A stretch of 64,000 nucleotides of DNA. It comes from a virus (lineage: Duplodnaviria > Heunggongvirae > Uroviricota > Caudoviricetes). Shown piece after piece: positions 29,783 to 64,000 of the stretch. The number at the start of each line of letters is the position of its first letter. Position 1 is the stretch's first letter. Where the stretch lies: positions 120,791 through 184,790 of the IMG/VR virus record IMGVR_UViG_3300021400_000048; one strand, 5' to 3'. The notes beneath the pieces are model-generated. The model had not been told where the DNA came from, did no database searches, and worked only from the letters and a program-made list of their open reading frames with translations. The position numbers and the translations under genes were made by a program.

Positions 29783-29809
29783 AAAAAGACTCAAAATTGA
29801 GTCTTTTTT
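29783..29809 (-). terminator. intrinsic terminator ending the tail operon
   Basis: AAAAAGACTC-AAAATT-GAGTCTTTTT. Confidence 0.75.
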
Positions 29810-31568
29810 ATTCATGTTTGCTTCAACTACAACAAATATGCACTGTTTCACCATCTTTACTTCAGCCAGTTCCGCCAATTCTAAAATAGAAAAAAGAGCC
29901 AGATTTTTCTGTGTAGGCAGTAACAGTATATAAGCTATCTCCATTTTCTCTACATAGTGAAACATTTCCACCATCACATATGCGTATATCACTATAGACG
30001 AGTAATTCAGGTGGTAATGGAATTCGGCAAGCATTACTATTTTTAATATTTTTTATTTCACCTATAAAAATACAACCTTTATCAATTTTAATTAAAGTTC
30101 CACTAGCAGTTTTATCTTCACCACTAGTATAATTAATTGTAGTTAAATTATCTGTAGTATTATTAATCATTTTTGTAGTAAATGTAATATGCTTACCAAT
30201 AAGGCCTGAGCATTCTGTAAATTCACCATCTTTTAAATAGATTGGCGAATTAGCATTTCCTACATTACCATAGCTTTCAGTAAATTGTCCATCATCTATA
30301 AATACTAAACGCTTAGTACTTCCAAGATTTAAATTAGTATTATCACTTTGTTTAATTTTAATACCTGTATAACTATAATTTGTTATATTACCTGCATAAA
30401 AGTTAGTTGTTGCTCTAACATCTAAAATATCATTTACAAGACCTATATTATCTACGTTTGAAGGCAATGAACTAGCAAAGCCTTTTATAGAAAGACACTT
30501 ATCATTTACTATAATTCTTTCACTATCTATAATAACATCATTTATATTTGTTCTACCGCGCATTATAATTTTAGGATCAGTACCTGTAGCAGTAGGATCA
30601 ACTAGTAATGTTGCTGTTGTATTTGGTTCACTTTCATAATCTTGCCAGAAGTTGCTATCATCAACATTTGCATCAACTAATAATTTATAGATAGCTGCAG
30701 CACGATTATTTTTACTAATAGATATTGCACTATTATTACTGTCATCTTTAATATCAAATTGTCCAACAAGATCAGTTTTTCCATCAGTACCAATGCTAAA
30801 TAAATCTTTTCTTTGTGAACTTGTTCCACCACCTACTTCAAATAATTTTCCACCAATATTATATTTACCGACTGCAAAACTTCCTTCAATGGTTGCCTTA
30901 GTTCCTATTCCAATAGCAATACTATTTGCACCAGATGCTTCATCTGCACTAATAGCTTTTATAGCTCCAGTACCAGTACCATTTATTAATCTATTTGTAA
31001 TAGGAATACCATTTTCTTCACTCTCTATATGAGTAGCAGTTTCTGTAAGTAAAGAAGCATTAACTGTTAGACAATCTGGCATATGAACTGTTCAAATAGG
31101 TAGGCTAATTATATTTACATTGCTACCACTTGGTGCCTCATTAGATAAGATTAATGCTTGGAAATAATAGTCACTACTATTTTTAGTATCATAGTCAGTT
31201 CCTGTAAAAGGAATAAGCTTTTTTGTTAAAAAATCATCACTGTCTGTCAATATTGATACATAGTCTATTTTAATCTTAGCATAAATAGTGTCACCATCAT
31301 CAAAATTATTTAAAAGTGTAGACTTAGCAATAGAAAAGTTAAAATAATAACCATGAATTACACACTCTACATAATACTTAGTATTTTTTAGTACACTACT
31401 AATAATATAAGAATCTTTTCCTTTAATGCTGCCTCCACTATGAGAAATATTAAATTCAGTGTTAAGTCGAGCTTCTGGATCAATTCATATATTTGGTTCT
31501 GGATTGTTAGTTCTAAAACCACTTGGATAAACTTTTATATCATTACTTAAAATTGTTATATATGACAT
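29808..31568 (-). CDS. tail fiber / receptor-binding protein with YadA-head-like repeat (586 aa, code 4)
   Basis: ASGANSIAIGIGTKATIEGSFAVGKYN..LFEVGGG; last gene of baseplate operon; four TGA. Confidence 0.7.
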
Positions 31569-31570
31569 TT

Positions 31571-32149
31571 TTATTCTCCTATATTATTTGAAATTTCCAT
31601 TGTTCAATCTATTATTAAAGTGTAAGAGGCTTTTGCACTTGTTACAGATAAAATATTTTTTCAGTCATCTTCTTCGGCATTTAGAAATAGGAAGTATGCA
31701 CAAGGCTCATCTTTACTATTATAAATAATAGCTTCATTTACACCAGAGTTATCCCCAGATGTTATAGTAGTATTAATAAAAGCATAAGGTATTCTAAAAT
31801 GTAATGTTGTAGAGCAAGTAGCATTATCAACGGTTTCTTCTGTGCTTTCAACAACAGCATCTGTATTTGTTGTTATAAATGGAGAAGCTTCTACTATTAA
31901 ATTATTATCGGCTGATGGTAAAAACTTTTTATTTGTAGTAACTTCATTATAACTATATCCATTACAAAATAATTTTATTTTATAAGGTCTTAATACTTTT
32001 GCTGCTTCAAATTCGCCAGCTAAGCAATACCCAAGAAACTTAAATAAACTAAGACAGCCACTGTTATGATAAATTTTAGTTGATAGTATACGATTATTTT
32101 GTATAATACTTGTTTTAATAATTCCTTTGTAGCCTAAATTATTAATCAT
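31571..32149 (-). CDS. baseplate/tail-fiber attachment protein (192 aa, code 4)
   Basis: AAGGAG RBS; HNSG..LFKFL; read-through gives IIDWTMEISN. Confidence 0.7.
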
Positions 32150-32150
32150 A

Positions 32151-32846
32151 TTATTCTCCTTGCTCTGTTTCATTATTCTCTATATCAGTCTTACCATCTC
32201 AAATAGTAGAATTAATAATAGTGCCTGGTGTATCTCCCAAAGGCTTTTCACTTAAAACACTCTTTTCATCAACAACATTAGTAGGATTAAATACAAATGA
32301 TACCTTATTTGCATTTGTTGTCTCTGCTGTAACTTTTTGTAAAATACCAACATTTGTATTTGATTTTTCACCAAATCTAAATTCTCTTACTATATTACAA
32401 AGCATTCCAGCCGGTAATAAATAATCTAATAAGTCAATTAGTAATTGTAAATCTGATATTTCTTGTGGCATATACACAGTAAGCTCTAAATTGTCTGCTG
32501 ATATATCATAGCCAATAGATGTTAATATACCTTCTATATTAACTACAGCTTGGCAAGCATCTAAAATTGCTTGTATTGTCCCTTTTTTACGAAGTACTTC
32601 AGATAAAATACTACATAATGCTATTAAGTGCTTTGTATTATATTTATGTTTTGGCTTAAAACCAAGTGTCAATGTTAATAGATCTAAGTACTCTTCATTA
32701 ATATTATCACTAAATGGTAAACTATTAATTAGCTTTGTATTCGTCATTATAGAGTTTAATACAACATCATAGAGACGCCCAATAAATTGGAAGTCCCTAG
32801 ATTGTTTATAATAAACCTCTGGTGTCAAGTGTTCTAATTTAATCAT
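32151..32846 (-). CDS. baseplate wedge protein, P2 gpI-like (231 aa, code 4)
   Basis: YLDLLTLTLGF...LRKKGTIQAI; follows the gp6-like gene. Confidence 0.75.
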
Positions 32847-32848
32847 AA

Positions 32849-35800
32849 TTAATATCTCCTTAATTTAGAAGCTTGATTAATAATAACACCCCTTGTCAAA
32901 TATTTAGCGTCTATTTCTGTAGCTGTAAACTTATTATTTAGATTATTTGGATCATAGAATAAATGACCATCTAGCATACCTTGTTGATTAATTTCAGATT
33001 TTATATTTATAGCTATTGTATTATCAATTGGACAGTTGTAATAGAAACCATTATCTGTACCAAAATGATTTTCAACATAACCAACAATAGCTGCTTCATT
33101 TAAATCAAGACATAAGTCTTTATTAATAGGTGTGCCATCAATTATTTTAATAATACTTGGCTTACTAAAATAAATTATATCTGTACTTGTACCACTTGTG
33201 CTAATTGTTATAGTACTACTTGTTGTAATTTTAGTTACTAGTAATAATTGTTGAGGAAGTGCATAAGGTGTGTTAGCACTAATCTGTATTAAATTACCAT
33301 TATTAATTTTATATACAGTCGCATTATTATTAAATGTTATTTGTGCATGATAGTTAGTTCCGCCTTGAACAAGATATCAAGCAATATAGCCAACACAATC
33401 AGTTGGTAGATTTAAATTCAATGTTATACTATTTTGAGCAGCATTGTTATTAAATGTATATTTAGTAAATAACCCATTATTAAAGTTATTTAATGCAACA
33501 GTTTCATCATTATTCTTAATAACACTTTCTTGATAAACTTTAATTGTTAAATTTGGAGCATCAATGCCTTCTTCTTCATATATTTGTGTTTGTGCTTCTA
33601 CATCAAATGTACCACTTCCTGATATACAATAACGATTTGTAGTTGCCATAAAAGTTTGAGTATCTGCAGTATAATTAATTGCATTTGCTCAGCTACCGCC
33701 TGCTTTAAGGTATTGCAAATTAGTAGTAACTGTATATGTATCATCACCAATAGTTAAGCTTTCTTTACGGAAGGCTTGTGCTATATCTGGTCCAATATTT
33801 AATAGTAGTTTACTTCGTACTTGTCAAGTATCCCCAGGAATAGTTATTTTTGGTAGATCTTCAGGGCTACTCTTATCTTTAAATTGATATTTTGCAGTAC
33901 CAACAGTAGTTCAACTACTACTACTAATTGCAATTGAAGTAGGATCAGTTGCACCATCTGTTGCATTAATAAAGATGTCACCACTTGTTAAATTAATATA
34001 TTTATATTCTTTTATTTGTAAATAATTAGTAGTATTAAATTCTTTATAAACTCAATAATCATCACTAGTATATCCATTAAAGCCAGCAGAAATAATATCT
34101 TCACTTGCAGGCATTTCAGTAATTTCAAAAGCAGTTGTTGGATCATCGCCATAGCCATTAAAGATGATTTCAGTACCACTACCATAAATAGCAAAGTCAG
34201 ATTTATCAATATCAGTAATATAGAAATATTCATTATCGTCTAAGATATAGCTATTTGCTGTAGTTAAAGATTTAATTTTATACTTATTACCAACTTTTTC
34301 AATATTGGCGCTATTTAATGTTCAGCTTATATTTCTATTACAATTTTTAACATCAACTACTACTGGGGCAACAATTTCAATTTGCTCATTAGCACTAAGT
34401 GTAAACATTTTCAATGCTTGTGTTAAGTAAGTTTTTTCTTTAAAAGTTCTGCCAATATATTCTTTAATTTCTGTACCATTAGGCAAAGACTTAGTATATG
34501 ATTTTCCAGTTACACTTTCACTATTCATTAAATTAAAGTTTGGTCTAATAATAGTTCCTGCAGTATAACAAATACTTACTTCTTGAGGTGTTGTATTTTC
34601 ATTTGTACTTGCTGGTGTATAATTAAAATAAATCTTATCACCAACATCTAAAAGATATTCTGTTCCAGCCATTACTACAGTACTAGGATCTGCAAATTTA
34701 ACTGTATAATTAACATATGCAGGGTAAGTAAGAAAGGCACTATAATTTGGTTTTCTAAATTGAATAACTTCATTATCTTTTAAAGTAAGACCCTCATAGC
34801 CTGCTGCAATAGTAAAGTCTGTTCTTAGTTCATTAATTACTCCAGTATTAGGTAAATAAGCAATATTAGTTTCATTATAATTTGCAACAAATTCTGATTG
34901 TTCATTAAATAGTGAAACACGCCCAGCTAGCACATTACGTAAAATAAGTTTATTTGTTAACTCTTCACCTGCTCCATTTGTTGCAAAGTCATATTCTGTG
35001 CCATTAGCAGTTTCAATCTTTGTATAGATTGTAAAATTATTTGTTTTACTAACTTGTTTGATACGAGTATCTGCATTTAAAATACAATCTAAAATTTCTT
35101 GCTCAGGAATTTCTTCACCAAAATCTAATTGTCTTAGATTAAAGTTTTTATAAATAGCAGTTTTAACATTCTTTAATATATCGTCTTCTTCAGCAGTATT
35201 AACTTTTTTAGTAGTTGTAATTTCCGCATTAACTTGCAAATAATTTTTAATACAAACAATTTCATTACTTTTTGGTAGTATAAAATTATGAGAAATAGTT
35301 TTACTTTCTTCTAAGTCAGCTTTGATTTCATTATAATTTTCAGGATTATAAGTAAAAGATTTTTCATACTCATCTTTTGTATTTAAGCCATAAACTGTTT
35401 TGAAAGGATATAGCATTAAATCAAAGTGATTTATACTGACTTCACTATTTTCTAAAATAGGCTTAGTAATATATTTAATGCCATTATCACCAAAAGTGCA
35501 TAATATAGATGATCTATTAATGTCATCTCTGATATCAGATACGATAATATTAGATACTAAAGGCGTTGTATCTACATCACTAACAGTTAATTGATAAATT
35601 TTATTCATATAGTCACGACAAGTAACTAATGTATCAAATGTACCAATTGTCTTTTTATAATTATTATAAGCTTGATTTATTGTTTCAATATTTGTACCAT
35701 TAGTTGCAGCTAAGCTATTTTTAATAGACCATTCATCAGAAGTTATAGAAATTTGTTCTGAGCCGTTATTAATTGATAGCTCTTCCATAACTGTTAAATT

Positions 35801-39020: not shown

Positions 39021-39347
39021 CTACCTCTCATTACCAAAAGTAATACTAGATATACTTGGTATTTTAATAATATCGAAATATTCAGTTAAATTTATAAAAG
39101 CATCTTGTATATCATTAAAGTATGCTATAATTCATCAGTATGTTGGATTGTTATAATAATTTAAGGCTAGTGAATCGAGTGTATCTTCTTGCTTTACTTT
39201 ATGTGCAACTCATGATGTATTTTTAAATAAGTTTGAGCCTAAGCCGTAAATATCTTTTTTATCTTCTTGATTATAATAATATGGAACGCCTGTGTAGCGA
39301 GATATATAGTCAAAGTTTTCATATCTTTTATTTTTTAACTCATCCAT
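39021..39347 (-). CDS. LysM / gp53 / P2 gpX-like baseplate protein (108 aa, code 4)
   Basis: DTLDSLALNYYNNPTYWWIIAYFN with WW encoded TGA TGA (39132-39137); missing from track. Confidence 0.85.
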
Positions 39348-39350: not shown

Positions 39351-39944
39351 CTATTCCTCCGTCATATTCATTCCCTTTTTAAGTGTACTTACCATACCTC
39401 TGAAACCACCATTTTTATAAACTGTTGTTGCATCATATGGATCAACTTCAGAAATAGTTATACTTAATGAAACTTGTGCATATTTATTATTGGATAATAT
39501 AGGCTTTTCATAAGTTAAACCTATTTCACTTGTAAGTACACCTTTACAAAAAATTTCTTCTCCAATTTTTACTGCTATAAGAGGTGGCTCAACAGCTTTA
39601 TTTGATAAATTATATTTAGGTACAGCTATCGCACGAAGAGCTCTAATTAATGCATCAATATAATCTTCCCCTTCTTCAAGCTTAACATTACTTCAACCAG
39701 TATTTAAGTCATCAACAAAGTCTCTATGTAGCTTGATTTGGAATTGTACAGTTCTTGGTCCGGAATAACTATAAGTATAAACAGGTGCGGATCTACCTAA
39801 AGAATTCATTGATGTAAAATTTGATTGCATAGTATCACTAATACTATCTGGCCAGAAAGGCAAACGCCAAAACTGTAAACCTTCATCTAAGTGTGAAATA
39901 TATAAATAATTGTCTGGTGATTGGAAATTACTTTTAAATGACAT
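39351..39944 (-). CDS. tail tube initiator, gp48/gp54-like (197 aa, code 4)
   Basis: P.SISD..Q.NF....LGRSAPVYTYSYSGPRTVQFQIKL; EPPLIAVKIG. Confidence 0.75.
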
Positions 39945-43588: not shown

Positions 43589-43841
43589 CTATAACTTATT
43601 TCCTTTCTGGGCTGATGCATCATCAATTGCTTTCTTTGTATCTTCTAATTTATTATTAATTAAATTAATTAAGTATATACGTTCTGAAATTGACATATCA
43701 AGTGCTTCATTATAACCTATGTTTAAATTATCACAAATAAATCAACATTCCTTAATTAATTCTTTAATTCTTATTGGAGCGTAAGGTTTCCCATTACTAG
43801 ATATTTGTGGGTCTAAAAAACTCTGATTCGAAGCGAAAAAA
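43589..43841 (-). CDS. gp51-like / GT-type chaperone extension, start-less +1 frame
   Basis: SFLDPQISSNGKPYAPIRIKELIKECWFIC..LDMSISERIYLINLI; no early start codon; overlaps the end of the chaperone gene. Confidence 0.6.
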
Positions 43842-44567
43842 GGTTTTTACCTCATTTTTACAGTGCGGACACTCTGCAATAAATTGTGTATCAATACCAA
43901 TACAAGTACTTAATTGTGCAAAATTATTTTGAATTTTAATAAAGTCCTTTGAGGATAAATTATTAATAAATTTTTCTAATTCAATTTGACTTAATTTTTC
44001 ACCATCAACTGTATCAATTGCTTCTTGTACTAATATAAATGTTCTAAAATCAATCTCTGAGTCTTTAAAACGTTTTTCTAAATCTCTTGTTCGATTATCA
44101 ATATTATCTAAGATATGTGGTGTTTGAATTTTAATTGTAACTAATCTTTTGCAATCTGGTAGCGTAAATGTACGTAGACTGTCAAAAGTTTCTTGATCAA
44201 ACTCTTTAACTTCTAATTCATCTAAATGCACAATTGTATTTAACACTGATCCACAGAATGGACAAGTAACAGTCATTTTATATTCATCGCCATAAGATAC
44301 AATTCTTAATTTATGTAATAAAAATTCATAATCACCAAATGCCATATCATAAACAGGTATAGCAGGTTTTTCTAACATACAGTTTTCAATTAATGTTGCT
44401 AATGTTTTAAAAGGTGTTGTAGAGCTATTTAATCTTTTCATTTCATCTCTAGCTGTCATACTTCTAAGTTCTACGTGTGGATTAACAGATACACCTTCAT
44501 AAATAAGTCCCTTAGAAGGTAGCTCATAACCTTCTGCGATTGTATAATTTTGTTGTCTTTCTTCCAT
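43797..44567 (-). CDS. baseplate hub / tail assembly chaperone, T4 gp26-like
   Basis: ELPSKGLIY..VELRSMTARDE; CPFCG and CPHCK zinc motifs; between tube and tape measure. Confidence 0.8.
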   Translation of the reverse strand: MEERQQNYTIAEGYELPSKGLIYEGVSVNPHVELRSMTARDEMKRLNSSTTPFKTLATLIENCMLEKPAIPVYDMAFGDYEFLLHKLRIVSYGDEYKMTVTCPFCGSVLNTIVHLDELEVKEFDQETFDSLRTFTLPDCKRLVTIKIQTPHILDNIDNRTRDLEKRFKDSEIDFRTFILVQEAIDTVDGEKLSQIELEKFINNLSSKDFIKIQNNFAQLSTCIGIDTQFIAECPHCKNEVKTFFRFESEFFRPTNI

Positions 44568-45490: not shown

Positions 45491-47086
45491 TTATTCATCA
45501 TCTTCATCAAATGATACAAGAGTTCCTGTAATTCCATCTTCTAATGTAAGGCTAATATCGAAATCTTCTACAGCTTCAACTGGAACAATTCTAACAATAG
45601 CTTTAATTTCAGCTTTTCTTTCAGTTGCTACTTTTAAGATTCTATAATCTTCTATTCCTTGATTTGCTTGAGCTTTTTCAAGAATAGGTCTAATTTTATT
45701 ACAGAAATTATTTCATAAAATAATATTATTAGGTTCAAATTTTAAGTCACAGCAAGCATCATAAATAGCATTTTTAATACCACAGCATAAATGTCTAATA
45801 TTTAAGAAATGACTTGCTTTTAAATCAGTTGCTTCTTTTGGACAATAAGCTGTTCTATTACCTCAAATATAATAGCTATAAGTATAATTACTATTTTTAA
45901 TACGAATAATTGTATTTACACTTGGGCACTCATGTGTGTCTCTTGGTTGAAGAGCATCTGCAGCACTTTCGCCAAAATTATAGCCAAAGCCCTTAATTTT
46001 ATAGAAACTATTTGTTCCACGAGTTTTACCAGCAATAGCAAACCACTCATCATAGTTATTTAGCTCAGCTTCTTTAGCACTTGCTAAATAATAAACATAA
46101 GCAGGAAGAGTAGTATATGTATAAGGATAGTCATTATCTTGTGGAATAAATGTAAATTCTGGCTCAAAAATTCCAAGATATTTACTTTCTGTAATCTTAA
46201 TATTATTCTCATCATCTGTTACAAAAGCTTTAGCATATGCTTTAGACTTTGTAATAACAGTAGCAGGTACTGAAATATCTTTATAAGCATCAGTAGGAAC
46301 ATCAACTAAAGCAATACAATCACCCCTACCATTTTCTGTAACTTCAGTATTATACTTGCTAGCAATCTTTAAAATTAATTTTTCTGCTGTACTAACAGTT
46401 ATAATATCACTAATAGTTGTAGCATCATTCTTTAAACCAGTTACGATATAACGGAATACATAGTTATTACGATCTACTAAGCAACTAAAATTGTCTCAAG
46501 TATAGTCAGTACTAATGTTTTCAATTTTCTTATAAAGTACAGTATAACCAATACCTAATAATTCATAAGCAACTTGATTACCAATACTATTTGTAGCTTC
46601 TGCAGCGTTAGAACCAACATTTGTTAATTCATAATAATCAGTTGAGCTAGGGAATTGGCCATATCCATCACTTGTAAATACATAAGTGTATTTATAGCCA
46701 TTTGTATCTACTAAATAACCAGGTGTATATGTAGATTCAGCACTTTTTGTATATACTTTTGTTCCTGCTGAAATAGTATAATATTCAGTAGTTCCAGCTA
46801 ATGTTTGAGCTACAGCTGGTACTGCAGGAATAGCTGTAGAAGTACTTTCTACACAACCAATATACTTTTTAAACCATTGTTGAGCAGTTTTAGAAGCATC
46901 GCCAGCTGTACGACCTTTTCAAGTATTAGAATCTAGTGGATTTATTTCACAAATACCATTTTCATCTCAGATAGTGTCATCAACAGTTTCTGGTTGAACT
47001 AAACCTGGAACAACGACAGCAAAAATATTATTTTCTACATTATTAATACTTGTTAAATCGTATTCTTTAATTATATTTTTTGGCAT
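45491..47086 (-). CDS. tail sheath protein, T4 gp18-like (531 aa, code 4)
   Basis: GRGDCIALVD, YIW(TGA)GNRTAY, LNIRHL, FEPN...W; absent from the code-11 track. Confidence 0.92.
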
Positions 47087-47140: not shown

Positions 47141-47149
47141 TAATTTAGC
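47141..47149 (-). promoter_or_regulatory. putative late promoter GCTAAATTA
   Basis: upstream of sheath gene. Confidence 0.65.
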
Positions 47150-48220: not shown

Positions 48221-49780
48221 CTATTGTTTGTTTACCAAATATTTTTTAGTAAGTTCAATTATTTTAGCAGGATTTGATAAATTATATAATTTACCAACGC
48301 GTTCAATAAGACTATTTAATTTTTTCATATTTTCTGCTGAAATATTATTATTGATTTGTACCTTATCTATTAAGTTTGTGCCACTTTTTGCAATATTAAC
48401 TGTATCAAGCCACCATAAAAATAATTTTATAAGATTTACATCATTTTGTTCATTATAGATTTTACTTAAACTATCTTGGGTTATAGTTTTACGAGTATCT
48501 GTTTTTTCTTCTTCTTCCTCTATTGTAACATCAAATAAGTCTTCTATATTTTCTTCAATATTTCCACTTGAACGTAATGTAGCATTTTCTTCTCTCACAG
48601 TTGAACCAGTAAAAATGAACAATCTTAATGCAGTACCTTGATTGTCAATTTCACCAGAAGTAGGATTTATTGCATATAATTTACTAATTTTAGTAGGGTC
48701 ATCTGTTTGAATATATTTTAAAACATTCATATCAATAGCCTGTTCAACTATAGAACTATTATTTGGTTCCCATTTTGCTTTTTCGCTTTGTCGTTGTTTT
48801 AGATAGCTATTAAAATCACTCTGTAACATTAAATAATTATAAGCTTTGTTTGCCTCTACTAAATATAAGTCTTTTAAAGCAATAATGTCTTTATCATATG
48901 TTTTTGGACTGTTATTAAAAGCTATTATAGAGTTAATACTAAGCTTTTTGCTAGCTACGGCATTATGTATAGCAGTGTAGGTATTATGTTTTATAGGATA
49001 ACCTAAATCTAATAAAGTATGCACAAAACCAATAAATGGATTCTTCGAGCGTCTAAAACCAAAGTTCACAACTTCTTGTTGAAAAGCTTCGCCTAAAGCT
49101 GCCACAGTTTCAACATTTTCTGCACCAAATTCTGCTTCATAGAAGTTTAGTCAAGCGCCACTTATTAAACCGTTCTTAGCAGCTGCTTCAAATCTATCTT
49201 TCCAAGTCTCTGCCTCTGGTTCATCTTTAATGTTATCTAAAAGATCTTTACCTTGGCTAGTATTTAATTTTTCTTCTAAATTAATAATATTGTTTATTAC
49301 TTTAGCTCTCTTCGCACTATTAACAAGCTTATCAATTTGTTTCAATGTGTCAGTATTAATATTACGTACTTTAGCCAATAATTTTTCCAGTCTCAAAACA
49401 TTTGGGATATCTTTTTCTGTTGCAGCTTTTTTAGCAATTCTAAGTGTATTTATGCAAGCTGCTGTTTTTTGAAATGTATTTTTATTGTCATTAATATATT
49501 CACTAATGTCTTGACCGTTAATAATTGTTGTATTATATTTTGCGCAATAGTTTTTAATTGTGTTAGCAAAGTCCTTAAGTGCTGCAGCTTTATTACTAGT
49601 ACTAGCTGAATTATTTTTAAAAGTATCTTTAATTTTTTTAGCTAACTCTGGCAATTGTATATCTAATAATTTTAGCTCACCAATATCTTTTAACAATGCT
49701 TTTGTTAAGTCTATATTACTTTCTTCTGTTAAAATATATCTTTGATTTGGAATATCTACTTCTTGTAATATATATCTCAT
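48221..49780 (-). CDS. hypothetical late protein (519 aa, code 4)
   Basis: two track ORFs joined in frame by TGA 49151. Confidence 0.8.
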
Positions 49781-50353: not shown

Positions 50354-53300
50354 TTATTTTCTAGTTGCTAATCCTTCAACTAAATGTTCACCAATAGTGT
50401 ATTTATAGCTCATACTTTGTGGTACTAAGCAAGATTCTTTTAATACACAGTTAATTCTAAAGTTTCCATCTTCAGAAAGTGCTTTATTATAACCTTCTAA
50501 AATTGCTTTGCCTTCTGTTTTAGCTGCGCTTTCAAATACATATTGAGTTTTTCTTGTTTTGCCAGAATTAAAGTTAATAGTTCCTTCAACAATAAACTTA
50601 TTATCTTTTAATACACATTCATCTAATGTAAAGCTTTTAACATTTTCATATGTCTTACATAATGCTTCTGTAATGCATCCTTCAAATGCTTTTTCATCTG
50701 CTTCATCAACATTTTCAAATACTTTATTAATATTACATTCTGCTAAAGCATTTGGATCATTTAACATATCATCAAATGCTTTACTGTCAACTAATTTATC
50801 AAATTCTGCATCAGAAACTTCATTAGATGTATTATCAGCTTCTTTTAAAGATTCATCAAAATCTTCATCTTCTTCATCTTCTTCTTCAGCAAGACCAAGA
50901 TAACTTAAAATATCTTCACTATCAAACCAAAGAATGTCATTAAGTTGAACCATTTGAAGTCCTTCTGGATAGCATTCTTCAAGGTATTCTTCAAGTTGGT
51001 CTAACTTACCTGCATCTTTAATTTTATTAAAAGTATCAACAGCACCAGACCAAGGTGTATAATCACTAATATCTGCAATAATCTTTAAAGCTTCATCTAA
51101 TTCAGCTGGTTCTTCAACAGGTTCTTCAATAACTTCTGTTTCATCAACAGCTTCTTCATCAGCTACAGGTTCTTCAACTGGCGCTTCTTCTTCAGTTGTT
51201 TGTTCTTCAGTTTCAACTTTTTCTTCTACTGCATCAGCAACTTTTTCATCAACTACTTCAGCAATTTCTTCAGCTTGTTTTTCAGCTTCTTCTTCATTTT
51301 CAACTGGAGTGGATAGAGCTTGAGCAACGTCAGTAGCGACTTCTTTAACTTCAGATGTAGTAAAATCTACTTCAGGAAGTTCTTCTTTTTCTTCAGTTTC
51401 TTCAACATCAGTTTCTACAGGTTCTTCAACTACTTCATCAGCTACTTCTTCAGTTTCAGCAGCAGCTTCTTTTAAACTTTCATCTAAACCAAATTGTTTT
51501 CTTGAAAAACCATATTTTGAAGAATCCGCATCACTAACAAATTTTTCTCTATAGAATTCTTCCATATTATCTACTGTACCTCTAAATACATAAACAGGTA
51601 AATTTGAGTCCTCATTTTCTACAGAGACAATTTCAATGTTATATTCTTTAGGGTCATAATCTAAGCCGCCGGCACAAGTAATTGGTTGAGTTGTAATTAT
51701 GCGAGCAGATTCTTCTAAAGCAGCTTCGTTTAAAGTTAAGTTTTCAGAATCATTTTCTGCACAATGTTTTTTATCAACATCTTTTTGAACATCAGCTTTA
51801 TTTAAAGATTCTTCTACTTCAGCTGTTTCTTTAACTAAAAATGTTGCAGGATCAACTTGCTTTAAGTTTTCTCTAGAATATTTATCAAATAAATAATCTA
51901 TTGCATCTTCCGGTTTTAAGAAATCATAATATCCTTGTGCTCAGTAACCAGTTGTTAAATCATAACCGGCACCTAATGCATAGTCATTTGATTTAGGTCT
52001 ATATACAACTACGTATAATCTACCTTTATCATTTTGATATAAGTTTTTAACTTCAAAGCCCATTTTTGAAGTAGTTAAGAAATCTCTATTAATCCCCTCA
52101 GTTAAAGATTCATTAATAGCTTTCTTTGTAGTAGTTTCTTTAGATTCTACTTTTTCAGTTGTTTCTTCATCATCTGCTACTTCAATTTCATAACCAGGTT
52201 TAAATTTTTCATATTTATCAAGAGCAACTTCATAAGTTTTGTTGTCTTCTTTATTTTTAAATACTCTACTTACATAAACACCGATTACATCATCATTGTT
52301 AGCTAAAAGTTCATCTCTAATTGTTTTAACTTTTTCAGGAATAGCAGCAGCTTCAACTTCTTTTGTAATAATTGTATTATATAATTTATCTATACCAAAT
52401 AACTTATATTTGCCGCCAGCATATGGACAATTTTTACCAGCCTTCTTTGCATCTAAACAAGCTTTCTTAATATCTTCATAATTGATAAGAATTGTATCAT
52501 CATCTACAGCTTCTGTAATACCTATAGCAGGTTTAGTTTTTGCAGTTGTAGTATTATTTTCACCGCCTCAATTTTTTACAAAATTATCAAAGGTTTTATC
52601 AATTTCTTTAGGGTCAATGTCTTTATTGCCTTTATTTAGTAAATCTTTAATTTCACTTAGTGTTAAGGCTCTTAACTGATCAGCAAGTTTTTTATCACCA
52701 TGAGCTCTTAAAGCTTTAATAAGTGCTAGTTTTTCTTTTTGCTCAGCAGCTGTTTCCACTCCTGCTGGTAGTTTTTTATCGTCAGCTACATTAACATCTT
52801 CATTTAGTCCTCAAGAATTAATAACTGAATTAATAATATCATCGATTTCTGATTCTTTTAATTCTTGTTTACCACATTCACAGATTTTTTTTCCGCATTT
52901 TTCACAAACTGTATTTTCCTCTTTAATAGGTGTTTCATGCTCAGCTTGTAATTCATCTTGCTTAGCAGCTTCACCTTGTTCCTCTTTTAAAGATATATCT
53001 CTATCTAAATAAGGGAGTACCCTAAGAATAGGTTCAACAAAACTGCCTATATTATATTTTTTAGCTATTGAATCTACTTCTGATAGCTTAGGAACAATAC
53101 CCTCTTTTGCATATTTTATAGCTAATTGAGCAAGTTCTTTTTGAGCTTTCTTATAATTATCATAATAGCTATTATCATTAGCAAAATCTTTATTGGTTCA
53201 ATTTGCCCAGTCGTATACAGGAGACTTTTCAAAGATTAGTAAATCCTCATATGGCTCTACAGTTTTAGCTAAATCTTCATTTAAAGTGATATTTTCAGAG

Positions 53301-54007
53301 TCGTTTTCAGAGCAGTGTTTCTTATCAACATCTTTTTGAATTTCTGCTTTATTTAAAGATTCATTTGTTTCTTCTTCTTTCTTTTCTTCAGGTTCTTCTT
53401 CAAAGTCTAAGTCTAAAACATCAAGGTCATCAATATTTTCATCTTCTTCTGTTTTTTCAGTTTCTTCAACTTCTTCAGTTTCTTCCTCTGGTTTTTCTTC
53501 GAAGTCCTCAGTGTCAAAGTTATTTAATTCAGCTTCATCAACTGGTGCAACTTTACCGATTACCATATAGCCTGAAGTATTTCCACAGTGTTGACAAGTT
53601 TCATTAATATTAACAACATCTGGATTGTTTTCATCAACTTCTAAATCTTTTTCATCTTTATAGAATAAAGTCATACATTGAGGACATTGAATAATAACTT
53701 TACCTTCATAAGAAGTTAATAGGTCATCTTCAGAGTCTGCATCTAAATCAACAATTTTTTCAATCCTTGCTAATTTTGCTTTAGCAATTTCAGCTTCTCT
53801 TTCATCAGCTGCAGCTTCTAAATCATTAGTATCATTAACGTCATAATAGTCTTCAATTAAAACATCAGTTCTTAATTTTCTGTTGCCAAAACTTTCTCTT
53901 AGGTCAATTCTGTTTGGTAAAATTCCGCCTTCGACTTTTGGATATTCCATTTCGTCTAGTGCTTTAAATGCTGCACTTAAATCAAATTGTGTTACAGATT
54001 TTTTCAT
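50354..54007 (-). CDS. very large acidic head-associated protein (1217 aa, code 4)
   Basis: four TGA join track ORFs 53198-54037, 52568-52759 and 50354-51565; many (I/L)-x-E motifs; duplicated 29-aa segment. Confidence 0.8.
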
Positions 54008-54979: not shown

Positions 54980-55768
54980 TTATAAGCCAATATATTGGCT
55001 ACCAATATAAGAATTTTGTTTTTTATCTTGTTCCTCTAAAGTTTTTTGTATAAGTTCTTGGGGATTTGCTGGCATATCTTTATTTTTTACAATATATGCC
55101 TGAATAATATTTGTATCTCTAATCATTCTATTAAATGGTCTGACACATTGTCGTGCTCAAGTCGATGGTGCTTGTTCTTTAGCATTCAAAAATTGTGTAC
55201 ATTTAATACCAACAGGTGGCTTAAATTCAAGTTCACTATATTTATGATGTAATAGACAAGCAAAAATACTATCTTCAAATCCTTCATTTTTTTGTGGATC
55301 AATATTTACCATTGGCTCTTTTTTATAGATGTACTTAGAAATAGCACATAAGTTTAATTGTGCTGCGCAATAAGGGTGATATTGACTATTTTTTCCCGGC
55401 ATAAAACAGAAGCCATTTGGATTTTTATCTAATAAATTCATATACTCTATATGAGCATTATTTGTTGTTTCAATAATAGCATCATCATCAAACATAATAA
55501 TATAATCATAATCCAGTTTTAGAAATTCTTCTCTTAAAGTTTGACGAGCTTTTAAAATTCCAAGTTCTGGATAGATTTTTATTATTTGTTTATTTGCAGT
55601 TTCAATTGGCTTAAAGTCTTTTCAATTTTGTGCAATAACTAAAATATCAATATCTGGTCATAAATCATTTAATTGTTTAAATAATCTATTAATTCTTTCT
55701 TTTCTTTGTGTTCTAGCTGGTTCTTTATCTGGTAACCAACTAGGTATTCCAAAACATTTCTTTAACAT
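54980..55768 (-). CDS. GT-A fold (family 2-like) glycosyltransferase (262 aa, code 4)
   Basis: LGILKARQTLREEFLKLDYDYIIMFDDDA DxD-type motif; three TGA. Confidence 0.8.
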
Positions 55769-55794
55769 ATTCTTTAACCTAGTAAAATTCCTTT

Positions 55795-56850
55795 CTAATA
55801 AGATCAAAAATTACCTGTATAGTAATTTTGTGAATTTTTTGTTTTATTATTCTTGTGCTCATGAATATTAATATAATTCAATTTTTTATATGGTAAGTCT
55901 ATTAGTTCAAAACTAGACTTATTTGGAAGTTTTTGTTGTAAAAAAGTTAATAAATTATTTTTACACACTTCAAAATTATCAACAGCTGCTGTATCATTAA
56001 AACAAATCATTTCACAATTATTATATTGTGTAAAATCTGTTCAAGAGCTAATCGCTACATAAGCAGAATTCTGATAAATTCTATTATTAAGCTCACCATA
56101 ATTTGTATATTTCATAGCATCAATATAAAGTAAAGATGGAATTAAATTTTTTGGGTGTCTAAATCTTGATATACTCATAGCTGTGTAAATATCATTATAG
56201 TATTTATTCATAAAGTCTTGTTCAAAGCTTTTTAGCTCACCATCAGGCAAATGGCTATAATGATAAAATTTATCTACTGGCTTTTTAATTATTTTTGATT
56301 CTAAAAATTGATTATTATTACTAATAATAGTTTCTCAAATTCTATTACCACAGCTTCAATTTTTAGCTCTATATCCACTAAAGCCTTGTTGTATTTTACC
56401 ATTTTTATTAAAAAATAAATTTTCTGGAATATTATTTATAAAATAAAAATCATCATTAGAAACAATAAAATGCTCGCTTAAATCAGGTATTCTATAATAA
56501 AATGCTTCAATTATTAATGTACTAAAAACTGGCAATAATTCAGTTGGAATAAATTCTTCGTGTAATACTATACGAAGCTTTGGATTTGTTTGGTCTAATC
56601 ATGTGGGAATTTGACTTTTTCTTTGTACTACTAAAAATACTTTATTTACTCATGGGCAATTTTGTTCAACACCCCTAAACCAATATCTAAAAGCTTCTCA
56701 ATCTCTAACGCGTTCTTTTGCAAAAGCTTGAGCATTTGTATTTTGCTGAATTCCTAACGCTATTTCTTGTTGTTTATATTTATTAAAGTCAGCCTGTCAA
56801 GCTTTATCATTTTCATCTACATATGGTACAATAATATCAATAGGAAACAT
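55795..56850 (-). CDS. Stealth-family sugar-phosphate transferase (351 aa, code 4)
   Basis: IDIIVPYVD..D..W; RVRDW..FRYWFRGVEQNCPWVNKVF; IPTWL; IPDLSEHFIVSNDDFYF; most Trp are TGA. Confidence 0.88.
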
Positions 56851-56852
56851 AT

Positions 56853-57566
56853 TTACTCCTCAAAATTTAAAAATTCTTGTATTGACATTGCTTTATCATC
56901 AACATAAAAATCTGCATTTTCTTTACCAAATAATAATTTTGTATATTTAACATTATATTTTTTAAGTCATGTTTCAGTAATAGCTCTATATTTGTGCTCA
57001 CGAGCAGCTAATGTTTTACAACTTTTAGCTCCACGTGCAGTATATAAAATAATAGTTCAACCATTATCATATAGTGTATTTATTTTATTAATTACATCAA
57101 GATGTGGAGTTGAATTCTCAAAATCACGGTTATATGTAGTTAAAATAGTATCATCAATATCAATAACAAAAGTTTTAAACTCATAGTTATCTATTAATTT
57201 TGTTTTAAGATCTGTTGTAGAAATACCAGCTGTTCGTTCAATAAAAATTACTTTAGCATATTTTTCGATATCAACAATGTCTTTATAACCTTTATAATCA
57301 CTACCAATTGCAAATATATCTATATTATTATTTTTTAGGTAGTCTATTTTATCTTCTTGGCTATTTAATAATATAACTTCATCAACATATTTTATAGCTT
57401 CGAGAATAGTTTTTCTTTCATTTGCTGAATTTATTGGAGTTTTTCCTTCAGGAGCTACATTTACGCCGACAATTAAATAATCGCCAAGAGCTCTAGCCTT
57501 TTTTAGAAGATTAATGTGGCCGTAGTGTAGCAAATCAAATGTTCCAGTTGTAAATACTTTGATCAT
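56853..57566 (-). CDS. TagD-like cytidylyltransferase fused to HAD phosphatase (237 aa, code 4)
   Basis: GTFDLLHYGHINLL (HxGH); DIDDTI, GW(TGA)TIILYTARG, W(TGA)LKKYNV, YVDDKA. Confidence 0.9.
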
Positions 57567-58520: not shown

Positions 58521-59933
58521 TTATCTATTCCAAACATATGTTGCTTGGCCACAGTCGTATATTTCAACAAAACCTGCTTGGATCATTAAGTCTCTATTAT
58601 TAGATATAGCTAAATTATCATCTTTTGCATCACAATGATGAATTAATCTTGAAAATCCTTGCTGACGTAATAAAGCATCTGTATAATGTTCTTTTGTTTG
58701 TACATTATACCAGTGTTTAGATGGTGCAGTTTTTCTTAAAAGCTTAAAATTAAGTTTATTATAAGTATTACCAGAAAACTTACTTAGATCACAATAACTT
58801 ATAACTGAATTTGGTTTATATGTTTCAATAAAATATTTAAAAAGCTTTTCTGCACCGCCAATAACTTTTGCATTTGAACAATATCTAATTAATTCATACT
58901 CATAATTTTTATTATAACGAGGCTTACCAAAAGTCATTACAGATACTAGTTCATTTTTATAAAATAAACCAATTTTAATTGTAGACTTTGCAGTTCCTTG
59001 TAAATGATATTTAATTAAAAACTCATCACTTGTTTTCTTATCAAGTTCTTTTATATTACATAATCTACCATAAATAGTTTTTTGATTATTAGCAAGTAAA
59101 TTAATAATTTTATTCTTATCATCCCAGTCAAATATATGAATACATTTAAAATTATGATTATTAGCAATTTCTGTTTTTGTTTTATGATATATTTTTGAAA
59201 GTGGCGTATTATATTCAAAAGGTGTAAAAGTAGAATTATGTGTAAAAGTAGGGTTAATTTCTACAAGAATTTCACCAATCTTAAAATCAAAGAATTTTTT
59301 ATCTAAACAATATTCTCTTTCAAAATTAATCTTATAGTCTTCTAATAATTTTTTAAATTGTAAATTTGGTTGACTATCTTTTTGATTGTAACTTTGGCCA
59401 TCTTTAAAACGATTTTTTAATACTTCATTTTTTTCATCTTCAGATAAGCTATTCCACCAAGCCTTCATTGATTCACTTCTCATAGCATCTTGTTTTGCTT
59501 TTTCTTCTGGTGATAAAGAGGCTCTATAAGCTTTATTAGAAGCTGCTTTTGTTTTAGCATATGTTGGATTTAAATGTGCTAAAGATTGCTTAATTGACCA
59601 AGCTTCTTTTTCTTCAATAGATTTATTTTTCCAAGACTCTTTTTGTGTTTCAGCTGATTTTTTTCCGCCTGCTATATAACTTTCATGAGTTCTTGCAGCT
59701 GGTTTACCTTTATACTTTGATGGCTTTTGTTTTGAGAAATCATAATTAAATAATTTTAATACTTTAGTAAGTTGTTTAACTGTTCTTAAGCCAAAGTGGT
59801 TCATAGTTTCTTTTTGATTATGATAAAGATAAAAATTAATAAAATCTTCAGCTGATATAGTTGCAGTTATATTATTAATAATCTCTTTATTTAATTTTTC
59901 AATTTCTAGTTGCTTTACATATTTATCTGTCAT
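58521..59933 (-). mobile_element. free-standing Hef-like homing endonuclease gene
   Basis: NUMOD3-like helical repeats; FEREY..FDFKIGEILVEIN (PD-(D/E)xK-like); IYGRLCNIKE..HLQG..ELVSVMTFGKPR..YELIRYC. Confidence 0.75.
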
Positions 59934-60068: not shown

Positions 60069-60093
60069 ATAAACTTTGTATTACTTAGATTAA

Positions 60094-61395
60094 TTAGTCA
60101 ACGATCTTACCAGCAACTAATAGACTCTTGTTTAATAGAGCTTTAGCATACCAAGTACTGAAACCTTGCATTAATCCACCATCAGGTGTACCAAGTAATT
60201 GAGTTGGAACGATTGCCATGTAAGGTGCATATACACCAGCAGAGCTCATCATATCATTTCCGTTTAAGCCTAGGAAGAATTCGCCTTTACCTAGTTCTGG
60301 AGAAACGTATACAGCTACGCCATCAATTTCACCAACTTTGTAAGGACCATTCATCTTAGCGTTCTTAACTGGAGTCCAGCCATTAACGAAACGTAATACT
60401 TGTAAGCAGTCAGCAGCAACTACCATGTAGTTAGGATGGAATTTCTTAGTTCTAGTATAGATGATAGCTTTAGCAGCTTCAAATACTTCTAAGAAACCAT
60501 TGTAATGTTCGAATTTAGAAACGCCGACAGGAAGAGTCTTAGAGAATGTTAATTCAGGAAGAGCTTCACCAGCACCTTCTTTTAACATATTAACGATTTC
60601 AGAGTCAATTTCAAATGCTAATTCACCACAAGCTTGTTCAGCGATTTGTTTGTCTAATGAGAAACCATAATCTGTTTTAGCTTGGAATGCACTGATTTGG
60701 TCATATTTAACAGCAATTCTTCTTGGTTCAGCAACTAATGCGATGTGTTCCATCTTTGGACCAATTGAAGGAATATCTTGAGCTGGAACATAGTTCATTT
60801 GGAATTGTTTTGCAACATATGCAACTTTTACAGCAGCAGCATCAATTTCATCACCATAAACATATGTACCATCAGCTTTAATTGATTTGTAAGTAGCAGT
60901 TTTGATTGCACCATTTTCTTCATAAGTTAAACCATTTGGTTCAGCTTCGAAAGCTAATCCAGAACCAACAGCTTCAACGATAATTTGAGAAGTGTAGTTT
61001 CTACGAGCTTCACCAACTTCGCCTAATCCGAATACACTGTTGAATTCATCACCTTGAGTAATTCCACCTTTATTAGTAGTAGCAACATACTTTAAGTATG
61101 CAACTGATCCACTGTAAGAAGTCATTGGGTGTACAATTACTAAATCATTAGCGATTAATGATGGAACAGCAATATTAGTTAAGTTTAAGCAGAATTTCTT
61201 CCATGCACCTAAATCACTTCTTTGAGTTGCAACTGTATCTAATGCTTCAGTAATCCATCTGTTTGTATTATCTAGTAATACAGCAGTAGTTAATTTAGCG
61301 TTATCTGAAACAACTTTGCCATCAAAGTTTTTAGCAACGTATGCTTCAGCAACTTTAATTTGTCTTGAATAAGTTTCAAGTAAATTTTGTCTCAT
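60094..61395 (-). CDS. major capsid protein, T4 gp23-like
   Basis: VHPMTSYSGSVAYLKY, AEPRRIAVKY, ELAFEIDSEIV, GVYAPYMA; AGGAG RBS. Confidence 0.92.
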   Translation of the reverse strand: MRQNLLETYSRQIKVAEAYVAKNFDGKVVSDNAKLTTAVLLDNTNRWITEALDTVATQRSDLGAWKKFCLNLTNIAVPSLIANDLVIVHPMTSYSGSVAYLKYVATTNKGGITQGDEFNSVFGLGEVGEARRNYTSQIIVEAVGSGLAFEAEPNGLTYEENGAIKTATYKSIKADGTYVYGDEIDAAAVKVAYVAKQFQMNYVPAQDIPSIGPKMEHIALVAEPRRIAVKYDQISAFQAKTDYGFSLDKQIAEQACGELAFEIDSEIVNMLKEGAGEALPELTFSKTLPVGVSKFEHYNGFLEVFEAAKAIIYTRTKKFHPNYMVVAADCLQVLRFVNGWTPVKNAKMNGPYKVGEIDGVAVYVSPELGKGEFFLGLNGNDMMSSAGVYAPYMAIVPTQLLGTPDGGLMQGFSTWYAKALLNKSLLVAGKIVD

Positions 61396-61432
61396 TGTTT
61401 TTTCTCCTATTAAATTTTTTGTTTATATTATT

Positions 61433-63226
61433 TTATTTTTTTAATCCCGCTAAAATTAATAAATCATCATCAATTTCATAGCCATTATCAGGATCATTAG
61501 ATCTTGCTTTAGGTTGTCTTGATTCAACTATTCTAACTTTAGCATCACGAGCCAAGCCATAAGTTGGCTTTGCACTTTCTAACATTCTTTCACAAACTTT
61601 GTCAACATCATCAAAAGTTCAACCTTCATTAAGTCTACCAGTAATTTCACTAGTATTGACACCTAGCATTGATGCTTTCATTTCTACATATTTATAAGCA
61701 GCTTCAAGATATTTAGCTTTATAATTTTTAGCAACACGTGAGTATTTAGCTAATTCAGCTTGATGTTTATCAGCAGCTTCTTTTAATGCAGCTTGAGCAT
61801 TTTCAAGTTCAGATGTTCTTGTAGCTAATTTTTCAGCTAGAACTTTTGACTTATTAGCTTGCTCATTAACGCTTTCTGTAAGTGCTTTTGCATTTGCTTG
61901 GTTAGTTTTTAATGTTTTAATTGTTTGTTCTTTAATGTTTAATTGTTCAGTAAGTTTTTGAACTTCTTTCTTTGCTTCTTTTGATTCAGCAGCTAATGTA
62001 CTTAGTCTTGCAAATGAATTCTTATACTGATTAAGTTCTTCTTCAAGTTTCTTAACTTTAGCATCGCTAACTGCCGCACTCTCTTTAAGAGCTTTTGCAT
62101 CAGTTTCAAGAGCTTCTTTTTGGCGAATCATTTCCTTTAAACTTGCAATAAGTTCTGTTGCCCCGTCATCAACGGCATCTTCAGCAGGAATTTCTTCGTC
62201 TGCAAGAACAGGCTCATCAATTACTGTTTCATCAGTAACATTTTCTGGTTGTTCAGCAACCTCTTCAACATCTATATCATCTGCTTTTGCAGGAATGATA
62301 TCTAAGTTAATATTTAGCTTCTCATCATCAGCTAAATAATTTCAAGCATCAACTTTATATTCAACACCATCAATATTAATAGGTGCAAATTCAACTGGCG
62401 CTTCTTTATTAAAATCATCTAAATGATCAATTAATTCACCAACTGTAATATTAGGAAGTACTGCAGGTTCTTCTAGCTCTACAGAAGCTTCTACTGGTTC
62501 TTCTTCAACTGCTACTTCAGTTTCTTCTGGAGCAACAATTTCAGGTTCACCTACTGTAGTGTCTTCAAATGGTTCATCTTGAACATCTTCATCTAAAGTA
62601 ATTTTTAAATTATTTAACGCTTCTTTAACAATTACTTTATCTTCATCTTTTTCTTCATTTAAAGATTCTTTTAAAGCTTTCTTTAATTTTATATTATTAG
62701 TGTCTAAAGATTCACAAACTGCTAAACGTGCCTTTTTAACAGCAGGAATACCTACAATATCAAATGTTTCTAAGAAGAATGTTTCTGGGTCAACTTCATT
62801 ATTTATATCAACATCGCCAGAACCACGTGAGCTAATACCAGGTTGGAATCCATAATCACATAATGTTTTTAAAATACGACCATTAGGTGTATCAAGAATA
62901 TCAACATAAGCATATAAGTCACCATTTACAATTTTAGGTACTTCTGGAATACATGCACATGCTTTAGACATATCAATTTCTTCTCTATCTGTTGGATGAC
63001 CCAATTCTAAGAATAAACTTTTTGTTGCAACTTTTTCTAAGAAGATTTCATCTTTTAATGCAGATTCTCATAATTGTGCATTATAAAATCTACCATTACG
63101 TGTACTATCTTTTGTTGTTGCGATAGGTCCAAAAAGTCTTCCTAAGATATGACGCTTACTTTTTTCTTCTTCTGTAAGAGGCATCATTTTAAAGGCTTCC
63201 ATAATATTTCTATAATCTTTAGCCAT
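61433..63226 (-). CDS. prohead protease (gp21-like) fused to coiled-coil scaffold (597 aa, code 4)
   Basis: STRNGRFYNAQLW(TGA), LELGHP, GISSRGSG, TFDIVGIPA; three TGA join two track ORFs in frame. Confidence 0.88.
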
Positions 63227-63249
63227 TTGGAATATCTCCTTTTTACTAT

Positions 63250-63258
63250 TAATTTAGC
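63250..63258 (-). promoter_or_regulatory. putative late promoter GCTAAATTA
   Basis: upstream of protease RBS. Confidence 0.65.
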
Positions 63259-63299
63259 AAATTATTATTTATTATTTTAATAAATTATTAGCTTACTTA

Positions 63300-63578
63300 T
63301 TATTCTCCATCATTTCCAGGTGTCTCTTCATTAACAACACCTTCTAAAGCAGCACGGTCTAAAACTTTTATATCATTAGCATTAACCACACCAGTTGTGC
63401 TAATATAAATACCACTAACACTATCAACTTTTTTTTCATATACTTTTTTAATATCAGTATCAGCATAATCTTTGAGATCAATAATTTCAGTATCATTTGC
63501 TGCAGTAGGAATTCCTGTCAATGAACCCTTAATAACCTTATTTCCAGCATTATAAACTAATTTGTACTTATTTGCCAT
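63300..63578 (-). CDS. hypothetical late protein (92 aa)
   Basis: GAGGAG RBS after late motif 63636. Confidence 0.75.
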   Translation of the reverse strand: MANKYKLVYNAGNKVIKGSLTGIPTAANDTEIIDLKDYADTDIKKVYEKKVDSVSGIYISTTGVVNANDIKVLDRAALEGVVNEETPGNDGE

Positions 63579-63635
63579 ATTTTTCTCCTCAATTTAATAT
63601 TTAAAGTAAAATAAATTAGCTATTAACTAATCAAT

Positions 63636-63644
63636 TAATTTAGC
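63636..63644 (-). promoter_or_regulatory. putative late promoter GCTAAATTA
   Basis: upstream of 63578 start. Confidence 0.6.
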
Positions 63645-63715
63645 AGAAAATTATTTAGTATTTTATAAAAAATGAAAAAAGGCTGAAAATTTTCATTTTC
63701 AACCTTTCGCTCAAT

Positions 63716-64000
63716 TTAATTATTTAATTTATCAGCTAATGCTGCAGTTGCAGAACGTTCTGATTTTACTAAATATACATAACCAAAAAGTTCGTTACCT
63801 TTTAGTCTGTCTATTAAGGTTTCAATACCTTTTGACTTTTCAAATACATTTTTATCACGTTGATTTAAGTCAGCGTCAAATCAAACTTCACTGCCTTCAG
63901 CGGCACGAGCAATAATTAATTGTATATGTTCTTTAGTTAAGTTTTCTGATTCAGAGCATATAATTAATGAATTTTTAAAATTACGTCCTCTTAAAGATTG
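63716..64000 (-). CDS. phoH: PhoH-family ATPase, C-terminal part
   Basis: SLRGRNFKNS..SENLT..IIARAAEGS..D..Q.D..ERS..A.LA; one TGA; truncated by window edge. Confidence 0.8.

Follow-up and report, generated by a model that had tools for sequence, protein, structure and literature searches.

In-frame TGA codons, predicted to encode tryptophan, follow the late transcription units of a T4-like phage from the ruminant gut

Can a tailed phage carry dozens of TGA codons inside its late genes because it changes the meaning of that codon in the infected cell, and, if so, what does the change do for the phage? The locus that raises this question is a 64,000-nt stretch of DNA (the window), which corresponds to positions 120791-184790 of the genome (C1) of a phage designated G000; its relatives are designated G001, G003, G004, G011, L047 and L059, and coordinates are positions in the window unless marked as genome. 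A sequence-only reading of the window had proposed that TGA is reassigned to tryptophan (Trp), that the codon is concentrated in late structural genes and that recoding times late expression in a host using the standard code. Our analysis makes it highly probable that this phage infects a host using the standard code, probably a member of the Bacillota, and switches the infected cell to reading TGA as Trp.

The G000 record is 223,464 bp long, has direct terminal repeats, is rated 100% complete and has a G+C content (GC) of 29%. Of the 263 open reading frames (ORFs) called genome-wide, 248 lie on the minus strand. Near variants of this DNA were found in gut metagenomes of goat, cattle and sheep from several studies. 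The gene content classes the phage as a T4-like myovirus with a contractile tail, on the basis of hallmark matches to Pfam and PHROGs (PF07068, E 2.5e-24; PF03420, E 8.6e-11; PF12322, E 2.3e-21) accompanied by weak matches of the tube and sheath. Among cultured phages, Bacillus phage SP-15 and Listeria phage LIS04 come nearest, with capsid identity of ~31%. A capsid-protein search retrieved 57 related IMG/VR loci (capsid identity 49-87%), several of them on contigs of 220-237 kb; about a third are recoded and the remainder use the standard code.

In-frame TGA codons and coding density

The part of the window to which the reassignment was ascribed is the following region, whose 29 genes are all on the minus strand, with at least one TGA in 24 of them.

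29808-64000, minus strand: late TGA-recoded gene region; 70 TGA and 31 TGG; ORF coverage 0.635 under code 11 and 0.936 under code 4

The earlier count by hand had given about 70 in-frame TGA codons, and exactly 70 lie inside these limits (75 when the gene running to 64612 is taken whole). The rise in minus-strand ORF coverage under code 4, which had been suggested as a check, was borne out here, with many code-11 ORFs of the window joining into long frames; for 1-18.3 kb the corresponding values were 0.82 (code 11) and 0.86 (code 4). The claim that no gene ends in TGA extends to the whole genome, where all 248 minus-strand ORFs end in TAA (201) or TAG (47).

For the early genes at 0.25-14.5 kb, about 40 TGG codons and a single TGA exception had been reported. 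Their restriction to TGG stands, and the counts were revised to 50 TGG and no true TGA: the 7 apparent in-frame TGA codons all fall in spurious 5' ORF extensions, mostly as the TGA of the promoter -10 element TGATATAAT. Because TGA is common off-frame in these same genes (376 per 8,098 codons), its in-frame absence is not compositional. The choice of Trp codon per gene was over-dispersed and bimodal both in the window (χ2 = 113, 37 degrees of freedom, P = 1e-9) and genome-wide (χ2 = 393, 105 degrees of freedom, P = 7e-35). Beyond the window, at genome 51584-70486, a single ORF of 6,300 codons contains 100 in-frame TGA and 39 TGG.

TGA codons at tryptophan positions

The sequence-only reading had cited a set of Trp motifs, every one of which was found with TGA at the Trp position. 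The genes concerned, and one further late gene considered here, are listed below (w, TGA; late box, the promoter motif TATTTGCTAAATTA).

15470-17167, minus strand: SNF2-family helicase; single sense TGA at codon 160 (TNwKSE), with Trp at that position in three relatives
39021-39347, minus strand: LysM-like baseplate wedge protein (phrog_7145); TGA-TGA pair (YwwIIA)
45491-47086, minus strand: tail sheath; 5 TGA and 2 TGG; YYIwGNRT motif; late box at 47141
48221-49780, minus strand: late gene with TGG-to-TGA changes between strains; C>T on the plus strand at 48410 and 48413
55795-56850, minus strand: Stealth-family phosphotransferase; 8 TGA
56853-57566, minus strand: glycerol-3-phosphate cytidylyltransferase-like domain fused to a HAD phosphatase domain; 2 TGA, with the HAD motif GwTIILYTAR; late box at 57595

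Codon-resolved tblastn of the TGA codons of the window against the 57 capsid-linked relatives (~1,000 aligned codons) showed that they most often face TGG (556), followed by TAT (119), TGA (104) and TTT (65). The TGG codons of G000 itself face the same spectrum, and GGN and TGY codons were negligible, leaving no glycine or cysteine signal. When TGA sites from the whole genome were compared with the unrecoded relatives G003 and G004, TGG was found opposite them 66 and 62 times, respectively, and TGA never. The human GlcNAc-1-phosphotransferase (GNPTAB) has an invariant Trp at two of the three TGA sites of the conserved Stealth region (sites 67 and 84). Natural variation runs in the same direction: in contigs of 95-99% identity to G000, which come from three other studies of the ruminant gut, TGA TGA takes the place of the TGG TGG of G000 (48410 and 48413). 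The unrecoded relatives, the human Stealth homologue and the natural variants all uphold the earlier assignment, and on these comparisons TGA is Trp in G000.

TGA use follows the transcription unit

Two kinds of promoter accompany the two patterns of codon use. The early-promoter pattern TTTACW-N17-TGATATAAT matched 17 times against 1.05 expected, and all 15 minus-strand matches lie in the early region. The late box lies 15-58 nt ahead of the start codons of TGA-bearing genes.

173-18172, minus strand: early region; 15 sigma-A-type promoters with an extended -10; ~35 small TGA-free genes using TGG only
21157-27133, minus strand: eight tandem, TGA-rich genes of ~240 aa; 21 TGA and 3 TGG; late box at 27163
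27220-29729, minus strand: TGA-poor island between two TGA-rich blocks; 1 TGA and 14 TGG

The TGA-poor island forms a transcription unit of its own, bounded by terminator hairpins at 29783-29808 and 27177-27206 and preceded by a sigma-70-like promoter at 29752-29780. Across genomes, TGA-free status matched between G000 and G001 in 90 of 98 comparable genes. TGA is enriched in late and structural genes and absent from early and code-change genes, with the major capsid gene as the exception. The proposal that TGA is concentrated in late structural genes therefore holds for the late enrichment, and "structural" proved too narrow, in that the Stealth, cytidylyltransferase/HAD and SNF2 genes carry TGA and the major capsid gene has none. 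The better predictor of TGA use is the transcription unit, that is, a late box as opposed to a host-type promoter, and not structural function.

A code-change module with tRNA(UCA), lon and trpS

A tRNA-Trp(UCA), an antagonist of RF2, or both had been predicted to be encoded outside the window. The tRNA was found at genome 11081-11155 with a trpS gene nearby; no clear RF2 antagonist emerged. ARAGORN reported 29 tRNAs in the G000 genome, including tRNA-Trp(CCA) and tRNA(UCA), and no tRNA in the 64-kb window, where Rfam likewise returned nothing at gathering scores. The tRNA(UCA) folds as a 75-nt cloverleaf in which the CCA end is encoded, the discriminator is G73 and the anticodon loop, CUUCAAA, is Trp-like. 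A bona fide tryptophanyl-tRNA synthetase (TrpRS) gene, trpS, which scores 304 bits on TIGR00233 (cut-off 177), follows some 2.5 kb downstream, and between the two is lon, encoding a Lon protease of 790 aa. None of the three genes contains TGA, and host-type promoters lie upstream: extended -10 promoters (TTGTATAAT; pattern TGTATAAT) precede both tRNA(UCA) and lon, and their conservation extends to G001, the closest relative.

Recoded G001 has both the tRNA and trpS; unrecoded G003 and G004, which are 96% and 100% complete, respectively, have neither. A trpS search of five fragmentary relatives gave no match, which is uninformative given their incompleteness (34-55% complete). The complete recoded relative G011 has a trpS 58% identical to that of G000, beside which lies a tRNA(UCA) whose anticodon is interrupted, between U34 and C35, by an insert of 290 nt (G011 C1 174676-175039; locus L206 14676-15039). 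Removal of the insert leaves a perfect cloverleaf. Standard ARAGORN misses this tRNA and relaxed intron settings gave mostly junk calls, among which only the trpS-adjacent locus was clean after removal of the insert; Rfam matched no intron family in the split-tRNA region. Bacterial tRNA-Trp is recognised through G73, a Trp-type anticodon loop and A1-U72, as identity studies in E. coli and B. subtilis established. G73 and the CUUCAAA loop are found in the tRNA(UCA) of G000, G001 and G011, and A1-U72 is found in that of G001.

A release factor search (PF00472) of the complete G000 genome found none; the same search was positive in 11 of 14 control genomes. One early gene of the window is a candidate for a link to RF2.

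10267-10446, minus strand: 60-aa early protein with an ArfA-like C-terminal tail KRGKGSFTRKRKHK; PF03889, E 4.4e-4, 20.1 bits, below the cut-off of 25.5

The tail of ArfA recruits RF2, and judged by this resemblance the 60-aa protein is a possible RF2-linked factor. Recoded G001 has this protein, as does L059, a distant relative without recoding.

The major capsid gene keeps TGG

The late region contains a virion gene in which every Trp codon is TGG.

60094-61395, minus strand: Gp23-type major capsid protein; 0 TGA and 4 TGG
61433-63226, minus strand: prohead protease (S77) fused to a coiled-coil scaffold; 3 TGA and 0 TGG; late box at 63250
58521-59933, minus strand: HNH homing endonuclease (phrog_3339, E 8e-56); 0 TGA and 7 TGG; late-type box 17 nt upstream

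The start of the capsid gene is 37 nt past the stop codon of the protease gene, which does contain TGA. In the recoded relatives in which it could be aligned, capsid orthologues have a total of 0 TGA and 52 TGG, and the neighbouring genes there are 40-90% TGA. This pattern would be explained if decoding of UGA against RF2 were too costly in the most abundant product, and such selection against a costly codon argues that the host RF2 is still active.

The HNH homing endonuclease gene lies directly downstream of the capsid gene and is sporadic, being present in 6 of the 57 related loci. The idea that the endonuclease recently brought in the capsid gene from a phage without recoding was considered and rejected as the main cause of the lack of TGA: the closest capsid (87-88% identity) is from another recoded phage, and recoded relatives without the endonuclease have no TGA in this gene either. 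We did not find a TGA-free capsid exception in the literature searched, and the term "major capsid" is absent from the text of the Borges et al. preprint.

Distribution of the recoded state among relatives

In a capsid tree and in a five-gene concatenate (2,722 columns), recoded phages occupy at least two positions. The approximately unbiased (AU) test rejected their monophyly with a log-likelihood difference of 133.9, for a group that was defined post hoc and among phages in which recombination is possible. As the tRNA(UCA)-trpS cassette is homologous across the recoded lineages, independent gain, transfer of the cassette and reversal are indistinguishable.

From these observations we venture a broader proposal, which we hold tentatively and with more doubt than conviction: within one ruminant-gut jumbo-phage family, the reading of TGA as Trp may have switched two or more times, through gain, loss or transfer, travelling with the tRNA(UCA)-trpS cassette and gated in one lineage by a 290-nt insert inside the anticodon, and UGA decoding may be costly, so that in every recoded lineage the major capsid gene is kept as the only late virion gene without TGA. 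If this is true, the family forms a natural gradation, beginning with phages without recoding, passing through partial conversion of the late genes and ending with their almost complete conversion, in which to follow how codes change and at what cost.

How the switch may work and what it may do

From the arrangement of genes and promoters we infer the following course, including the charging of tRNA(UCA) with Trp and the order of events. Host RNA polymerase would make tRNA(UCA) and TrpRS early in infection. The phage TrpRS would charge the UCA tRNA, possibly a poor substrate for a host enzyme adapted to CCA, and the charged tRNA would then outcompete host RF2 and make the TGA-bearing late messages translatable. 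Timing would be set by the promoters, with recoding as an added translational lock that makes late proteins dependent on the early code-change module. AT mutation pressure would then turn TGG into TGA wherever this is tolerated.

Recoding itself might time late expression, as had been proposed. Another explanation, which may well be correct although we lean slightly away from it, is that recoding is a by-product of having a suppressor tRNA together with AT-biased change from TGG to TGA wherever translation follows accumulation of the tRNA; the early/late split would then be a mere constraint, and promoters alone would do the timing. It draws strength from the late genes having their own conserved promoter box, which bears directly on any role of recoding as a timer, and from the host-type promoters of the tRNA and trpS. 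It also fits the lower GC of recoded relatives (29-35%) than of unrecoded ones (33-40%) and a depth of conversion that varies in a drift-like manner, late Trp codons being mostly TGA in G000 and the closest relative L047 and a smaller share in other recoded relatives. Against it, the partition is kept gene by gene across ~30% protein divergence, the capsid gene has escaped conversion in all recoded relatives aligned, so that selection acts on TGA use, and the positions of recoded phages in the trees suggest a repeated advantage. These points do not separate a lock from drift under constraint.

Several observations weigh against the proposed switch or against parts of it. The promoters of the tRNA and trpS look early, and TGA is perhaps readable well before late transcription begins, which weakens any role of the codon itself as a timer. 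The tRNA(UCA) of G000 has G1-C72 instead of the A1-U72 usual in bacterial tRNA-Trp. No RF1 gene is present in G000, unlike in two genomes of the previously described Jade phages that have a full code-change module. Finally, TGA does occur in the genes for the sheath and tube, which are abundant proteins too, and this leaves a gap in the explanation of the capsid exception by expression cost.

The code of the host

The proposed switch presupposes a host that reads TGA as a stop, and use of the standard code by the host is supported indirectly, by features of the phage genomes. Early genes and code-change genes are strictly TGA-free despite a GC of 29%, and the early promoters, of sigma-A type with an extended -10, are like those of Bacillota. 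In the unrecoded relatives, TGA is a genuine stop in 16 of 214 ORFs and coding density is equal under both codes; in the recoded relatives, density is 0.46-0.79 under code 11 versus 0.78-0.94 under code 4. The closest bacterial trpS genes (51-54% identity) are from metagenome-assembled genomes (MAGs) of low-GC Bacilli and Erysipelotrichaceae, several of them from ruminants. Because these genes and the nearest cultured phages point there, the host is probably a member of the Bacillota.

Alternatively, the host itself could use code 4, as a Mycoplasmatota-like organism would, with the phage simply matching it. The low GC and the lack of a TGA stop anywhere in the genome would suit such a host, and the Bacilli and Erysipelotrichaceae MAGs that supplied the nearest trpS genes have a neighbourhood that includes code-4 lineages. 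Those trpS genes, however, contain no in-frame TGA, and a phage in a code-4 cell would have no need of its own tRNA(UCA) and TrpRS. About 150 genes, including all early genes, the replication genes, trpS, lon and the major capsid gene, use only TGG at this GC, and sister phages whose structural proteins are 50-77% identical use the standard code with real TGA stops. Taken together, the TGA stops of the sister phages, the affinity of trpS and the TGG-only early genes make a code-4 host very unlikely.

The last alternative, that TGA encodes another residue (glycine as in code 25, cysteine or selenocysteine) or that the frames are pseudogenes or assembly errors, can for practical purposes be dismissed, since its one point of support, the ARAGORN label "SeC" for tRNA(UCA), derives from the anticodon alone and the tRNA is an ordinary cloverleaf with a short variable arm, unlike a selenocysteine tRNA, while relatives show TGG and then Tyr and Phe codons at these sites and over 50 related contigs, drawn from many samples, conserve the frames at full length.

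Other late genes and features of the window

The remaining annotated genes of the tail module are the following.

39351-39944: tube-like protein
43797-44567, minus strand: T4-type baseplate protein (PF12322, E 2e-21); no Trp codon
44872-45474, minus strand: gp19-like tail tube protein; weak PF06841 match; 2 TGA and 2 TGG

Many late ORFs, including those of a 1256-aa protein, a 1227-aa protein and the 240-aa tandem family, had no match in Pfam or PHROGs. Within the tandem set at 21157-27133, some members are distant paralogues, with BLASTP giving four pairs among five genes at 26-30% identity.

At 54980-57566, the Stealth phosphotransferase adjoins the TagD-like cytidylyltransferase/HAD phosphatase fusion among the late genes. 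The families of this pair suggest synthesis of a phosphate-linked glycan or polyol polymer, which might serve to decorate the virion or DNA or act on a Gram-positive wall.

Contigs of metagenomes and metatranscriptomes pile up, with many false joints, at 50700-51600 and 53100-53700 within the 1227-aa gene; these segments are low-complexity, repeat-like coding sequence that is also found in other organisms. The metatranscriptome run X20 contained a few short contigs matching late genes, which say nothing on the level or timing of expression. Between 18400 and 20000 there are few ORFs, and a GC-rich island (45% GC, ~19200-19400) stands out against surroundings of 27% GC. No tRNA and no Rfam match was found in this stretch, and the island is possibly a noncoding RNA.

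Comparison with known systems

The reassignment in G000 resembles code 4 of Mycoplasma and Spiroplasma (NCBI table 4) in that UGA is assigned to Trp through a tRNA-Trp(UCA) under AT pressure. In those bacteria the change is organism-wide and RF2 has been lost, whereas the code of G000 would be imposed by the phage on a subset of genes in a host that presumably keeps RF2. Among cultured phages, SP-15 and LIS04 share with G000 a Gp23-type capsid at the low identity given above, and SP-15 also has a genome of ~220 kb and an endonuclease gene associated with its capsid gene. Both are very distant, and their record annotations, the only basis for this comparison, mention no recoding.

Parallels also exist among other recoded phages. 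Among the TGA-recoded Agate phages and Zeta crAss-like phages, recoded and standard phages are interleaved at short evolutionary distances and TGA builds up in late but not in replication genes (Borges et al.; PMC10136315). The family of G000 likewise mixes recoded and standard phages and has TGA in late and not in replication genes, but G000 is a T4-like contractile-tail virus, and the Agate and Zeta phages differ in virion type, genome sizes and predicted hosts.

The Jade phages are TGA-recoded phages of the animal gut with predicted standard-code Firmicutes hosts (Borges et al., bioRxiv 10.1101/2021.08.26.457843; Nat Microbiol 2022). Their recoded structural and lysis modules are scattered over the genome, their clade contains unrecoded close relatives, and their code-change module, comprising a suppressor tRNA, TrpRS and RF1, is in standard code (Borges et al., bioRxiv 10.1101/2021.08.26.457843). 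Like these phages, G000 is large and gut-derived, with late modules in which TGA is read as Trp, a tRNA and TrpRS module in standard code, and unrecoded close relatives. The Jade phages are reportedly similar in scale, with genomes of ~200 kb. Unlike them, G000 has no RF1 that we could find and has a Lon gene between the tRNA and trpS instead. With the exception of RF1, G000 thus appears to match the Jade-type description in the features compared here.

A TGA-recoded phage of this type has therefore already been published, and G000 is a very clean instance that opens no new question. Its practical weight lies first in annotation, as code 11 breaks most virion genes of G000 and its relatives, leaving late coverage at 64% and missing hallmark genes, fibres and enzymes. 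For the study of code change, too, the family is unusually clean: complete genomes with and without recoding have their gene order in common, there is a defined code-change cassette, codon use can be predicted from two classes of promoter, and one abundant gene has withstood recoding.

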